From contig MNYN01000011.1 in assembly GCA_001873105.1 (NCBI GenBank), positions 11,716 to 75,715 of the forward strand: a stretch of 64,000 nucleotides of DNA, given 5' to 3'. Shown here piece after piece: positions 54,279-58,661 of this stretch (the stretch's first letter is position 1; each line of letters opens with the position of its first letter). This DNA is from Flavobacteriaceae bacterium CG2_30_34_30. GTDB taxonomy: Bacteria > Bacteroidota > Bacteroidia > Flavobacteriales > Flavobacteriaceae. The notes beneath the pieces were generated by a model that did no database searches, was not told the origin of the DNA, and saw only the letters and a program-made list of their open reading frames with translations. A program made the position numbers and the translations under genes.

Positions 54279-54444
54279 TATTGGATTATTTTTTTTTATA
54301 ATTAAAGATACTATATTGTTGCTATAACACCCTTTTGTTTGACTTAATTTTAACGAAATACTTGTTAATAACATAGTTTATAAATACAAGAACTTGCTAT
54401 TTTTATACGTAAGAATATTACCTACTTTTAATAAAACTTCTATT

Positions 54445-54852
54445 ATGATAACTCGAGATATAGAGCTCCTTGCTCTAAGACCCGAAATTTCTTCTGCTAT
54501 TGTTCGTGCTGAAATGAGTTTTGATGAAAAGTTTCAAAACAAAACCCTTCGACCGATAATTAAATTACAAAATGATTTGCTGCTTGCTTCTTTTCGAAAT
54601 TATATCAGTAAATACAAAAATGGTTTTTACACTTTAGCCATTGAAAAGCGATTGGATTTTATTGAAAATGCCGTTCAAAAAGACATAAAATTTAGAAACG
54701 CATTAAAAGGAATGGTTATTGGGCAGTTTACATTGGAAGAATTTGAACTCTATATTCAAAATTCGTCAGCGTTAAACAAAAGAATGATGCATTTAGTTAT
54801 AGAGCGAATTAAAAACAACATTCAGTTACTGGAATACGAATATAGCCATTAA
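54445..54852 (+). CDS. Conserved helical hypothetical protein
   Basis: FQNKTLRPIIKLQ motif. ATG at 54445 preferred. Confidence 0.7.
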   Translation: MITRDIELLALRPEISSAIVRAEMSFDEKFQNKTLRPIIKLQNDLLLASFRNYISKYKNGFYTLAIEKRLDFIENAVQKDIKFRNALKGMVIGQFTLEEFELYIQNSSALNKRMMHLVIERIKNNIQLLEYEYSH

Positions 54853-54886: not shown

Positions 54887-55624
54887 TTAAGAAACACCTA
54901 AAATTTGGAGCATTAAAAAGCCGATAATTATAGTGACTGAAAAACTCATTAGTGTTCCTATAAGTACATATTCGGTTTGTTTTCTCCCACTGCTTTTTCC
55001 TTTATCATTAAATCGCAGTATCGATTTTGCTGCAATTAAAAATCCAATAGCGGCTATGTTATAGGTTAGTACAAAAGTGAGTACTAAAATTCGTTCAAAA
55101 ATTCCTATATATCGACCGGCTTTTTGTAAACTGTCGAGCTCGCCATCTTTTGCTATTTCCACTTGCCAGTGTTTGGTGGCCTTGCCAATGATAAAACCAA
55201 TGGGTGAAATTGCAAGTAAATAACCAATAAATAGAACCATCGTGTTTTTTGAATGTAAAAAATTATCTATAAATGGCATAATTTGTTGAAAATTTGCAGT
55301 TAGATATAACCAAGCTAAAAGCAAAACTAGCAAATGAAAAAGTTGATCTAAAAGAAAATACTTTAAGTTATCTTCTTTTTTATTTAATTTCCACAAATCA
55401 ATAAAAAAGTGCGTGATTATAATGAGTATGGGTATAAAAATCTGACTCCATTGTTGTAAAAACAAATAGGTTAAAAATCCGGCAATACCTGCATGAATAT
55501 ATAAAAATGGAGCTCTTGCCTTTTTTTCTCTTTTTTGTTGAATGTATTTAACAGGTTGAAGCGCAAAATCAGTCAGCAAATGTGCCAAAAGAAGTTGTAG
55601 TGCTATAAGTATACTTTCATTCAT
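54887..55624 (-). CDS. DUF3307-family membrane protein (SatE-like partner of SatD)
   Basis: AHLLTDF, HAGI, THFFID, DQLFH, GIFER, AAKSILRF, GTLMS. ATGA overlap with the satD stop. Confidence 0.85.
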   Translation of the reverse strand: MNESILIALQLLLAHLLTDFALQPVKYIQQKREKKARAPFLYIHAGIAGFLTYLFLQQWSQIFIPILIIITHFFIDLWKLNKKEDNLKYFLLDQLFHLLVLLLAWLYLTANFQQIMPFIDNFLHSKNTMVLFIGYLLAISPIGFIIGKATKHWQVEIAKDGELDSLQKAGRYIGIFERILVLTFVLTYNIAAIGFLIAAKSILRFNDKGKSSGRKQTEYVLIGTLMSFSVTIIIGFLMLQILGVS

Positions 55625-56274
55625 CGGTTATAATTTTTAGTCATTACATGGTCAAAACGCTGTAAAAGCAATTGTATTTCTTCCCAGCCTGCAGCTTTTT
55701 TTCGGAGGTTGATTGCCGCTTGACTTCGAGATACTATGTCTGCTATTTGTTGTTCCTTTAGCCCTTTTAATAAATAATATACCACCTCTGCCGATGCGGT
55801 TGACCATTTATCAGTAAGCATATCTAAAAATTTTAAACTTACTAAAAATTCGCCATTAATTTCTTCATTTGAGGTTTTTAGGCTTAGTTTTTTATTTTCA
55901 AATTTCATATTATCCAATGTTTTTCCTGAAAAATGAAAAGCTTCTCCATTAGACTCTGCAATAGCATTTTCATTATACTCTGCCACCCCTATTCCAATGG
56001 CGATGCGCACATCGGCTGTAGGATTGGTTGTTTTTTTAAAATTTGTGCTTTGCACTTTTAGCACCGATGCCTTCAGTTGTAATGCAATTTGTAATGCATA
56101 CTTTGGTTGTTTTACTATTCCTTGAAAACTATCCCCTCTAAATATCGTAAACATCGCTTCTTTTTGTGAAGCTATTTCTTCAAATTCATCTTTTAAATGA
56201 GCCAATACCTTTTGAAAGGTTTTCTTGTCGTAGGCTGTTGAATTTATTAAATCGGCTGTTAAAACGGCTACCAT
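55621..56274 (-). CDS. SatD-family protein: nucleotidyl-cyclase-like domain plus C-terminal HTH
   Basis: VLTADLINS, FRGDSFQG, VRIAIGIG, NGEAF; HTH KEQQIADIVSRSQAAINLR. Confidence 0.85.
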   Translation of the reverse strand: MVAVLTADLINSTAYDKKTFQKVLAHLKDEFEEIASQKEAMFTIFRGDSFQGIVKQPKYALQIALQLKASVLKVQSTNFKKTTNPTADVRIAIGIGVAEYNENAIAESNGEAFHFSGKTLDNMKFENKKLSLKTSNEEINGEFLVSLKFLDMLTDKWSTASAEVVYYLLKGLKEQQIADIVSRSQAAINLRKKAAGWEEIQLLLQRFDHVMTKNYNR

Positions 56275-56293: not shown

Positions 56294-56325
56294 CAAATAT
56301 AAGTCATTTGACTTATAAAAGCAAA
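56294..56325 (-). promoter_or_regulatory. Sigma-A promoter of satD: TTTG (56325-56322) - N20 - TATATTTG (56301-56294)
   Basis: Both Bacteroidota consensus boxes at the canonical 19-21 nt spacing, 20 nt before the ATG. Confidence 0.7.
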
Positions 56326-56375
56326 TTATAAGCCTTATGCCTTATAAATAGATATTATAAGCTTTTAGACTTATA
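56298..56375. promoter_or_regulatory. Array of three 20-bp palindromes TATAAG-N8-CTTATA at a 29-bp period (putative operators)
   Basis: 56298 TATAAGTCATTTGACTTATA; 56327 TATAAGCCTTATGCCTTATA; 56356 TATAAGCTTTTAGACTTATA. Confidence 0.8.
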
Positions 56376-56460: not shown

Positions 56461-56904
56461 ATGATAAAAAGACAACTTTTTGTAAAATGTATGGAGATGC
56501 TAAATCTTCAGATGGAAAAATACAAAAAAGAAATTCAAACAGTTAGGGAGGCTTTAGAAAATGAAAGCTCAAAATCAGAAGATGATGATGGGGGAAAAAG
56601 TGACATGTTAACAGAAATTGAAAAATATTCCAAATACATGGAAAACACAGAAAATTTAAAAAATCAATTAAAGCGAATTGATATCACGCAAGAGCATGAG
56701 GTGGTTACCAATGGAAGTTTAGTGGAAACTGAAAATAATTTCTTTTTTATAACGGTGGCATTAGGAAAAATAGATGTGGGGGATTCCAAAAATTATTATT
56801 CCATTTCAACAGATGCACCTATTTACACGCATTTAAAAGGAAAAGAAGCAGGAGATAATTTTAAATTTAATAACCTTGACTATAAAATAATTCAAGTATA
56901 TTAA
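56461..56904 (+). CDS. GreA/GreB-fold protein (coiled coil plus Gre C-terminal-like domain)
   Basis: N-terminal coiled coil with acidic tip SEDDDG; VTNGSLVET, ISTDAPIY, GKEAGDNFKFN. Confidence 0.65.
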   Translation: MIKRQLFVKCMEMLNLQMEKYKKEIQTVREALENESSKSEDDDGGKSDMLTEIEKYSKYMENTENLKNQLKRIDITQEHEVVTNGSLVETENNFFFITVALGKIDVGDSKNYYSISTDAPIYTHLKGKEAGDNFKFNNLDYKIIQVY

Positions 56905-56905
56905 G

Positions 56906-57583
56906 TTAATGTTTGTACAGGGAAGCCCCATTTAAATCAGTGGTAAGCACATCACTCATCAACTTAAAATAAGGTTGTACTAGCTGAAAATGATATAAAA
57001 TAGTTTTAATAAAATCTGTAGAAAGCACTTCTTTGTCTGCATAGTAATGAGCAACAAAGAAGTTTTTATTTTTTATTAAATCAATAGCTTTATGATTTTT
57101 GTCAAAGCCTTTTGGGGCTGTTTTCACTTGGTCTGTGGTATCTAATCCATCAAATACTTTTTTAAATTCCGGCTGTTTAAGAATATCTCTTATTTCTGTA
57201 TCATCTGTTTCAAATTCTTTACGAATACGCAATAAATCAGCAGGATTAGGCTCAAAAAACCCACAGCCAATAAAGGAATTTCCAGGTTCTAACTGTAAAT
57301 AATAACTACCTCTTCTGTGAACTCCAGCACGTATCCAGTTGGCGCTCCGATTTGTTTTATACGGCACTTTATTTTTACTAAAACGTACATCGCGATAAAT
57401 GCGAAAAATTTTCAACGTTTCTATTTCATCAAAGGTATTTAAGCCATTGGTTATTTCGTTGAAAAATAATTTAAGGGTCTTGTCTTCTTGTTGAAATTTG
57501 GATTTGTTTTCGGAAAACCAATCGCGATTATTATTTAATTTTAATTCCTCCAAAAGTGGAAAAAGAGTGTCAGATACTTTCAT
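56906..57583 (-). CDS. DUF2461-family protein
   Basis: NNNRDWF, FRIYRDVRFSKNKVPYK, KTAPKGF. ATG at 57583 avoids overlap with corA. Confidence 0.9.
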   Translation of the reverse strand: MKVSDTLFPLLEELKLNNNRDWFSENKSKFQQEDKTLKLFFNEITNGLNTFDEIETLKIFRIYRDVRFSKNKVPYKTNRSANWIRAGVHRRGSYYLQLEPGNSFIGCGFFEPNPADLLRIRKEFETDDTEIRDILKQPEFKKVFDGLDTTDQVKTAPKGFDKNHKAIDLIKNKNFFVAHYYADKEVLSTDFIKTILYHFQLVQPYFKLMSDVLTTDLNGASLYKH

Positions 57584-57593
57584 AAACAAGTAG

Positions 57594-58661
57594 TTAAAGC
57601 CATTTTTTCTTTTTAAAATAAAATAACATACCAATAATAAGCAAAATCATCACAATCCAAACCACATAATAGCCATATTTATAAGTGAGCTCCGGCATAT
57701 TTTCAAAATTCATACCGTAAACACCGGCTATAAAAGTAAGCGGAATAAAAATGGAAGCCATAATAGTTAGCACTTTCATAATTTCATTCATTTTGTTAGA
57801 AACGCTGTTCATATATAAATCCAACAAGCCGGATGCCATGTCACGAAACACTTCAATGGTTTCAATTACTTGTATGGTGTGGTCATATAAATCACGTATA
57901 AACACCTTAATATCAGGATTAATAAAAGGTTCCTCTATTTTTTCAAACCTACTAACCACTTCCCGTAACGGATAAACAGAACGCCTTAAATTTAAGGTTT
58001 CTCTGCGCAGTAAATGTAATTTGTTTAACGTGTTTTTATCGGGATTTTCTAAAAGTGCTATCTCAACATCTTCTAGTTTTTCTCCAAAAGTTTCCAAAAT
58101 AATAAAATAATTATCCACAACAGAATCTAAAAGGGCATATAATAAATAATCGGCGCCTCTTTTTCTAATAAATCCTTTACCTTCTTTGATTCGTTTTCTT
58201 ACGCTGTCAAAAACATCGCCAGTGCGCTCCTGAAAGGTAATGAGTGTATTTCCTTTTAAAATAAAACTCAATTGCTCATCATCTATGGTATCGTCAACAG
58301 AATCTAACATAAACATTTTTAAAACCACATGAAGGTATTCTGTGTGCTCTTCAATTTTAGGGCGCTGTCCTATACTTAAAATATCTTCCATTGTAAGTTT
58401 GTGAATTCCCAAATAGCTACACACTTCCTCAATAGTGTTTTCATCGTGTAATCCATCGATATTCACCCAGCTTATTCCGGAAAAGGACTCTTTCATTTGT
58501 ATGACTTCTGCAATGCTTTTTAATTTTTTTTCTTCATAGTAGTCTTCAAAATAATGAATCAAATTAATATCTACTTGAGTCATTTTTTGTACACCAGTAA
58601 AGAGTAAAGTCCCCGGAGCTAATCCTGATTTTGATTTTCGTTTGTTTCTTTTTCTTGCCAT
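57594..58661 (-). CDS. corA: Magnesium/cobalt transporter CorA
   Basis: WVNIDGL, EDILSIGQRPK, PLTFIAGVYGMNF. Confidence 0.95.
   Translation of the reverse strand: MARKRNKRKSKSGLAPGTLLFTGVQKMTQVDINLIHYFEDYYEEKKLKSIAEVIQMKESFSGISWVNIDGLHDENTIEEVCSYLGIHKLTMEDILSIGQRPKIEEHTEYLHVVLKMFMLDSVDDTIDDEQLSFILKGNTLITFQERTGDVFDSVRKRIKEGKGFIRKRGADYLLYALLDSVVDNYFIILETFGEKLEDVEIALLENPDKNTLNKLHLLRRETLNLRRSVYPLREVVSRFEKIEEPFINPDIKVFIRDLYDHTIQVIETIEVFRDMASGLLDLYMNSVSNKMNEIMKVLTIMASIFIPLTFIAGVYGMNFENMPELTYKYGYYVVWIVMILLIIGMLFYFKKKKWL

Follow-up and report, generated by a model that had tools for sequence, protein, structure and literature searches.

In a 64-kb stretch of the genome of Flavobacteriaceae bacterium CG2_30_34_30 (contig MNYN01000011.1, positions 11,716 to 75,715; this whole stretch is called the window here and coordinates are given within it), the gene satD and the DUF3307 membrane-protein gene next to it may form a two-gene signalling module with autoregulation and coupled translation, in which SatD would be both nucleotide-binding and membrane-linked. 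We give this reading a probability of about 0.5. The satD gene (55621..56274, minus strand) is an open reading frame (ORF) of 217 amino acids that encodes a palm domain of the cyclase/GGDEF fold followed by a helix-turn-helix (HTH). The second gene (54887..55624, minus strand) is a 245-aa ORF for a multi-pass membrane protein of the Pfam family DUF3307 (PF11750). The stop codon of satD and the start codon of the membrane-protein gene overlap as ATGA at 55621..55624 on the minus strand, read as TCAT on the plus strand, implying that translation of the two genes is probably coupled. An earlier note, made from the letters of the window and its ORFs, had described this two-gene arrangement with the same coordinates and the same overlap with a multi-pass membrane protein, and the ORF calls, the plus strand letters and the all-helical structural model of the second protein bore this out. 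The match of the membrane protein to PF11750 was clear (83 bits, cut-off 23) and confined to residues 9-116. The SatD match to Pfam SatD (PF16264) was marginal (29.4 bits, cut-off 29) and covered model positions 5-196 of 211. NCBIfam returned weak matches of SatD to HTH regulators and nothing more.

To place SatD, a profile of 25 orthologues was searched against a library of 1.84 billion proteins at E<=0.001, giving a family of 2579 representative clusters at 50% identity. Pfam SatD was matched by 122 of 141 homologues that were aligned. An AlphaFold2 (AF2) model built on this 141-homologue alignment had a predicted local distance difference test score (pLDDT) of 96.5 and a predicted template modelling score of 0.93, and consisted of a palm core at residues 1-135 followed by five helices. 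The palm domain (55870..56274, minus strand) has a beta-alpha-beta-beta-alpha-beta core and was recognised with AF2, Foldseek and hhalign. When the model was compared with the PDB using Foldseek, the top 50 matches were all class III adenylyl/guanylyl cyclases or GGDEF domains, with E values from 4e-5 to 8e-4. The best match was the cyclase Ma1120 (4wp9; probability 1.00, E 4.4e-5, template modelling score on the target about 0.54), and Rv1625c, soluble guanylate cyclase, DosC and WspR were also among the 50. A viral structure library likewise returned GGDEF and guanylate cyclase domains. Cas10 was absent from the top 50 PDB matches, and no Cas10 or mCpol profile was compared. Searching the SatD profile against all PDB chains by sequence returned nothing relevant, so that the relationship was revealed by the fold search alone, and the window SatD had no match to Pfam Guanylate_cyc.

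In the SatD model the end of beta1 carries D8 and the beta2-beta3 hairpin carries G47-D48, within the motifs VLTADLINS (residues 4-12) and FRGDSFQ (45-51), and a third motif, VRIAIGIG, lies at residues 89-96. Residue placement was assessed by aligning the SatD profile with class III cyclase domains from the window genome and its relatives using hhalign (probability 82%, E 1e-5). The alignment paired VAVLTADLINST of SatD with VTVLFTDFKGFT of the cyclases, with D8 opposite the Asp of FTDFKGFT. FRGDSFQ was paired with TIGDAYM, placing G47-D48 on IGD, and VRIAIGIG with IRIGINSG. SatD D8 and D48 thus correspond to D15 and D59 in the cyclase alignment, which are both metal-binding aspartates. Across the 141 representatives, with a mean column identity of 31%, D8, D48 and Q51 were invariant and T6, S12, R46, G47, R90, G94, G96, G110, A112, S116 and G117 nearly so. 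D8, G47, D48 and Q51 were retained in 155 of 156 SatDs when a second subfamily (described below) and homologues from Salinivibrio and Segatella were included. The sole exception, L122 (L122:3971-4597, minus strand), has K and N in place of the two metal aspartates; the gene downstream of it encodes a soluble 179-aa protein instead of a membrane partner, and this locus looks decayed or repurposed. The hairpin reads RGDSF in the window protein and LGDEF in the second subfamily, making it GGDEF-like. A comparison of the SatD profile with one GGDEF protein gave no match, in what was an underpowered, single-sequence comparison.

Together these data establish computationally the palm fold and the metal site of SatD, as seen in the predicted model and the profile alignment. 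Degenerate sensor versions of cyclase and GGDEF folds usually lose their metal residues. That the metal pair is kept almost without exception in very divergent SatDs therefore favours chemistry, or at least binding of a metal-nucleoside triphosphate (NTP), and the palm probably binds a metal-nucleotide through D8 and D48. Two rare SatDs, P0335 (577 aa) and P0371 (420 aa), carry long C-terminal extensions of TPR repeats, reminiscent of larger regulators built from cyclase, ATPase, TPR and HTH parts. The window genome also encodes a canonical class III cyclase-domain protein of 619 aa (PF00211, 191 bits; contig C39:12154-12702, locus L027), indicating that ordinary cyclic-nucleotide signalling coexists with SatD.

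The C-terminal half of SatD is a sigma-70-region-4/LuxR-type HTH. This helical DNA-binding domain (residues 137-217; 55624..55866, minus strand) places the HTH at about residues 174-194, with SQAAINLRKKA as the recognition helix. Among the 141 homologues the Pfam matches were to Sigma70_r4_2 in 94, Sigma70_r4 in 79 and GerE in 36. The 186-bp region upstream of satD contained three 20-bp palindromes of the form TATAAG-N8-CTTATA, exactly 29 bp apart and together spanning 78 bp. We take these as candidate operators and give them without strand: operator 1, the proximal one, at 56298..56317 (TATAAGTCATTTGACTTATA); operator 2 at 56327..56346 (TATAAGCCTTATGCCTTATA), starting 29 bp from the start of operator 1; and operator 3, the distal one, at 56356..56375 (TATAAGCTTTTAGACTTATA), starting 29 bp from the start of operator 2. 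In the 64-kb window the pattern occurred 3 times against 0.45 expected, and no further site was found even when one mismatch was allowed. Promoters of Bacteroidota, as described in Bacteroides and Flavobacterium, have the consensus TTG at -33 and TAnnTTTG at -7. A putative -7 box fitting TAnnTTTG (TATATTTG; 56294..56301, minus strand) overlaps operator 1 by 4 nt, and a putative -33 TTG (56322-56324, minus strand) lies 20 nt upstream of the -7 box. Operator 1 thus lies between the two putative boxes and runs into the -7 box, and because of this overlap with the -33/-7 region a protein occupying the proximal palindrome would be expected to block the promoter.

The array was conserved well beyond the window. 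An array with the same half-site, variable spacers and unchanged position was present at 13 of 20 Flavobacteriaceae family loci. Among 78 further loci, 51 had at least two perfect palindromes and the spacing was exactly 29 bp in 72 of 73 cases; a TAnnTTTG box was found no more than 70 nt from the start codon in 32 of 51 related array-bearing loci. In distant SatD lineages the phased array was kept and the half-sites were changed, to ATTCC-N8-GGAAT, ATTAG-N8-CTTAT or the ATAAC type, and in Segatella the half-sites were AATCAA-N10-TTGATT. The predicted recognition helix varied with the half-site, with N189 accompanying ATAAG and Ser at that position accompanying ATTCC and ATTAG. Because recognition helices change in step with half-sites, these data support SatD reading its own operators, and repression of its own operon by SatD through the triple operator is very likely, judging from this sequence evidence. 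Much of what the earlier note had seen in SatD was confirmed by these analyses. Its two Asp motifs, placed like the metal ligands of cyclases and GGDEF proteins, align with the metal aspartates; VRIAIGIG does resemble the cyclase strand; the fold comparison it had suggested returned class III cyclases and GGDEF domains only among the top 50; the aspartates proved to be conserved; the C-terminal HTH was recovered in the Pfam matches; and the self-regulation that it proposed gains support from the conserved array of three operators at the putative promoter.

The pairing of the two genes is obligate. A DUF3307 ORF lay directly downstream of satD at 20 of 20 family loci, mostly with an overlap of about 4 nt. 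In 301 Bacteroidota genomes all 58 strong SatD genes (E<1e-30) were directly followed by a DUF3307 gene, and these SatD-paired genes made up 58 of the 65 DUF3307 genes found in the same genomes. The loci from outside the close Flavobacteriaceae and the sampled Bacteroidota came from plasmid matches. A Salinivibrio plasmid encodes a SatD 28% identical to the window protein with a DUF3307 gene next to it and a 4-nt overlap, and a Segatella plasmid also carries the pair. A further 34 weaker SatD matches formed a second subfamily that is nearer to the Pfam SatD model (57 bits). Sixteen of these loci were fetched, and in 13 the following gene encoded a 106-124-aa protein that has three membrane helices and falls in no Pfam family. 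In the remaining three, L123 and L124 had a DUF3307-like partner of about 245 aa and L122 had the soluble neighbour. Members of the second subfamily (L114-L120 and L125-L129; for example L114:3675-3995) combine the hairpin TLGDEFQ with a three-helix partner of 106-117 aa. When a large protein collection was searched with this small partner, 882 proteins were recovered; they carry no informative name and belong to no Pfam family.

The membrane protein was better conserved than SatD. Its AF2 model had a pLDDT of 84.9 and was all-helical, and the protein was predicted to be multi-pass. Comparison of this model with PDB folds gave no match (best E 1.2), and no match to an anti-sigma family was found in Pfam. 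Identity as an ion channel was considered and not adopted, the channel fold matches being at chance level. The Pfam DUF3307 domain proper (residues 9-116; 55277..55600, minus strand) is an N-terminal, lineage-specific addition. It has near-invariant intramembrane residues, H15, D19, Q23, H72, D76, D93 and H97. These were lost in the variant partners at L123 and L124, and the small partners found with the second SatD subfamily lack the domain altogether. The C-terminal part is a three-helix membrane module (residues 129-242; 54899..55240, minus strand) with the motifs GxxIGxxER, AAK and EYxLIGTLxS. Alignment of full-length partners gave G170, I173, G174, E177, R178, G194, A199, K200, R204, D207, E218, Y219, G223 and S227 as invariant, and every invariant column except L41 fell in this module. 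The small partners of the second subfamily (106-117 aa) aligned to residues 129-242 by hhalign with a probability of 98.3% and an E value of 1.6e-14. Since the small partners are homologous to residues 129-242 and the invariant columns lie there, the constant partner of SatD is this unannotated three-helix module and the Pfam DUF3307 domain is accessory. SatD and the three-helix module are likely to work as a unit. Going by the positive-inside rule, the model and the sequence, the conserved charged residues of the module would face the cytoplasm.

These partner data bear on the possibility that the pair resembles TetR/TetA or ArsR/ArsB, with a repressor controlling a transporter or enzyme. Here the palm would sense a metabolite or a divalent metal without catalysis, and the DUF3307 protein would export or process the compound without contacting SatD. 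The operon does appear to be autoregulated, the membrane helices carry HxxxD, HxxxD and DxxxH motifs, and intramembrane His/Asp pairs of this kind recall the metal sites of cation transporters; the lack of the cyclase catalytic residues beyond the Asp pair would also fit. However, the His/Asp domain is absent in the second subfamily and degenerate in L123 and L124 while the three-helix module persists, and a three-helix protein of 106 aa is unlikely to be a transporter by itself. The strict ATGA coupling further suggests a 1:1 complex, whereas this explanation involves no contact between the proteins. We consider it rather unlikely.

For the signalling module that we favour, the following mechanism can be proposed. 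SatD dimers would occupy the three palindromes through the HTH, cover the -33/-7 region and repress the operon that encodes them. The palm would bind a metal-nucleoside triphosphate, and this binding would be the switch for DNA binding. The nucleotide could be a sensed ligand or, with about equal likelihood, the substrate for a product that is retained locally. The charged face of the three-helix module, made of E177, R178, K200, R204, D207 and E218, would be the contact for SatD or for the nucleotide, and the state of the membrane would thereby be linked to expression of the operon. The N-terminal DUF3307 domain with its His/Asp cluster may be an output or sensing part added in one branch.

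Several points weigh against this module or parts of it. The cyclase column for the substrate-specifying Lys is the hydrophobic I44 in SatD, so that the Lys/Asp specificity pair is not conserved. The Asn/Arg pair of the cyclase GDTVNVASR helix is not conserved either, SatD having GEAFxxSGxxLD with variable residues in that place; the hhalign alignment stops short of the Asn/Arg helix, and the region after beta4, which is shorter in SatD than in the cyclases, lies outside it. Among the leading Pfam families found for the 141 homologues, none with E<=1 was a cyclase or GGDEF model. It is therefore conceivable that the palm binds a ligand without catalysis, or binds metal alone. As for the operators, another regulator could read the palindromes that we assign to SatD, shared ancestry is a confounder of the association between half-sites and recognition helices, and the satD promoter boxes are putative ones, assigned by their fit to the consensus. 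Lastly, it is from co-occurrence alone that we infer contact between SatD and the three-helix module.

The missing auxiliary cyclase residues call for caution on catalysis, and we rate a catalytic palm at somewhat below even odds. Synthesis of a nucleotide signal, which the earlier note had proposed, can be put forward only as a candidate activity because the substrate Lys and the Asn/Arg pair are not conserved. In a bolder version, SatD would be a new catalytic branch of the palm superfamily beside the cyclases, GGDEF and Cas10; seated on the 29-bp array, it would make a nucleotide signal that is received by the cytoplasmic face of the three-helix module. We regard this as less likely than not.

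The distribution of the pair was assessed next to its genomic context. SatD was single-copy in 91 of 151 Flavobacteriaceae genomes (about 60%), sampled at one genome per genus except for the genus of the window, and about one in five of the 301 Bacteroidota genomes carried the pair. In the nearest clade the same genes flanked the pair, with ORF152 at 63 of 63 loci, an aldehyde dehydrogenase at 56 of 63 and ORF147 at 50 of 63, and these flanks did not recur beyond that clade. The clade-wide conservation of flanking genes together with the single copy points to long vertical residence at one chromosomal site. At 37 diverse Bacteroidota loci, no family occurred more than 4 times among 141 flanking genes. 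The commonest were housekeeping families, namely DEAD-box/DbpA helicase, SAICAR synthetase, tRNA synthetase and dihydroorotate dehydrogenase, and restriction genes were not among the recurrent neighbours. No PADLOC model matched more than 3 of these 141 genes. The models matched were of helicase and ATPase types, consistent with the 3-4 DEAD-box/DbpA helicases present among the flanking genes. SatD itself matched no PADLOC model, Pycsar and CBASS models included, and the only match of the membrane protein was to AbiK at chance level (E 0.023). Neither protein was encoded in phage records. The pair in this genome looks like a vertically inherited chromosomal resident and not a defence-island gene.

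These data count against the CBASS/Pycsar-like conflict system that the earlier note had suggested, in which SatD would be a second-messenger synthase and the membrane protein its effector. Spelled out, this would be an abortive infection system that damages the membrane upon phage attack. The cyclase-like fold with its retained metal Asp pair, the obligate membrane partner and the presence of the pair on some plasmids would suit such a system. However, neither protein had a credible PADLOC match, the enrichment in defence islands that the note had proposed to look for was not seen at the 37 Bacteroidota loci, and no phage homologues were found. The pair is single-copy, occurs in about 60% of the sampled Flavobacteriaceae genomes and keeps a stable chromosomal site across a clade, unlike the patchy, mobile distribution of defence systems. 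The membrane protein is also more conserved than SatD, which is the opposite of fast-evolving defence effectors, and cyclase-effector defence systems are not known to carry a fused HTH together with three operators. An abortive infection system is improbable on these grounds, and a defence role in this genome is unlikely.

The plasmid copies also raise the possibility of a toxin-antitoxin or addiction-like pair, in which the membrane protein would be harmful in excess and SatD would restrain it by repression and perhaps by contact. The layout is that of a type II system, with the DNA-binding gene first, the genes overlapping and an operator array over the promoter. This explanation is nonetheless opposed by the single-copy, vertically inherited state of the pair at a fixed locus and by the strong conservation of both proteins, the membrane protein having no match to a toxin family. 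In addition, an invariant metal Asp pair in a palm of 135 residues has no role in a simple antitoxin. We consider a toxin-antitoxin function distinctly improbable.

The genes around the pair in the window include an aldehyde dehydrogenase, DUF2461, CorA and the his operon. ORF152 (54394-54852, plus strand) is convergent with the membrane-protein gene. Although Pfam and NCBIfam gave no match for it, it is strongly conserved (E about 1e-75); it was syntenic in the 63 close loci and in 11 of 11 closer family loci and missing from more distant loci. Its true start is probably an internal Met at residue 17. ORF147 (56461-56904, plus strand) is divergent from satD and has no family match. Its start is about 85 bp from the distal operator, which lies upstream of it, and SatD may co-regulate this gene. 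The ORF calls for DUF2461 (56906-57634, minus strand) and CorA (57594-58661, minus strand) share 41 nt, suggesting that the CorA start is probably further downstream. In several related genera DUF2461 has the orientation of satD and ends directly before it. ORF152, the aldehyde dehydrogenase, ORF147 and DUF2461 were each considered as third components and dropped, because linkage confined to one clade points to shared ancestry and not to function.

Both Pfam families, SatD and DUF3307, are already known as families without a known function. A whole-word search of the literature found nothing linking SatD with cyclase, GGDEF or mCpol, while DUF3307 was mentioned in a single paper and SatE was present as a label only. 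The 2001 paper on the sat operon of Streptococcus mutans is said to contain no biochemistry for SatD or SatE. On our reading, a signalling protein of the palm superfamily would act here as a one-component regulator, partnered by a membrane protein. If this is true, a very common pair of "hypothetical" genes (about 2,600 SatD clusters) becomes a defined signalling unit, with a transcription factor built on a nucleotide-cyclase fold, precisely phased operators and an obligate membrane partner. The analysis also corrects what "DUF3307" means in this pairing, as the Pfam domain is variable and the unannotated C-terminal module is constant. Whether the palm makes a nucleotide or only senses one decides whether this is a new second-messenger pathway. 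Should SatD be a new catalytic branch, the pathway would be widespread and unstudied, covering more than 2,500 SatD clusters; the pair was seen in Bacteroidota and, on plasmids, in Pseudomonadota. Handles for work on the pair are the Asp pair D8/D48, the 20-bp palindromes and the GxxER/AAK/EY face of the three-helix module.

Among known systems, the namesake of Pfam SatD is the SatD/SatE pair of the Streptococcus mutans sat operon, traced to Kremer et al. 2001 (J Bacteriol 183:2543, as cited in PMC13492114), and the window protein matched that Pfam family only marginally (29.4 bits). The operon layout of type II toxin-antitoxin systems is found here, but a toxin family and a multi-copy, patchy distribution are not. 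Extracytoplasmic function (ECF) sigma factors with their anti-sigma factors differ in that SatD lacks sigma region 2 and is only region-4-like, its N-terminus being a palm, and in that the partner matches no anti-sigma family. In BirA the product of an enzyme is the corepressor, and in PutA and Mlc/PtsG a repressor is controlled at the membrane; in sigma/anti-sigma pairs the membrane protein that captures the regulator shares an autoregulated operon with it. BirA, PutA, Mlc/PtsG and ECF sigma/anti-sigma pairs serve as working analogies for SatD and imply no homology. Pycsar and CBASS share with the pair a gene for a small protein of nucleotide-cyclase fold beside a gene for a multi-pass membrane protein; the SatD pair differs in having no PADLOC match or defence context and in its fused HTH, autoregulation and stable site.

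The closest relatives by fold are the class III cyclases (PF00211; Ma1120 4wp9, Rv1625c 7yz9), with which SatD shares the palm fold, the beta1 Asp, the Gly-Asp hairpin and the RIxIxxG of the fourth strand. SatD differs from them in the missing Pfam match, in the absence of the Lys and of the Asn/Arg pair, in the shorter region after beta4 and in the fused HTH. The GGDEF diguanylate cyclases (PF00990; DosC 4zvh, WspR 3i5c) gave fold matches that were nearly as good (E about 2e-4) and share the GGDEF-like hairpin, but no Pfam GGDEF match was among the families listed for SatD, and neither the guanine-binding Asn/Asp nor the inhibitory RxxD site was identified in SatD. The mycobacterial protein Rv0386 combines a class III cyclase with an ATPase and a LuxR-type HTH. 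Regulators of the Rv0386 type resemble SatD in having a cyclase fold and a LuxR/sigma-r4-type HTH in one chain, and the SatD-TPR fusions echo this architecture. SatD differs in being minimal (217 aa), with no ATPase and no canonical cyclase residues, and in having an obligate membrane partner and an operator array.

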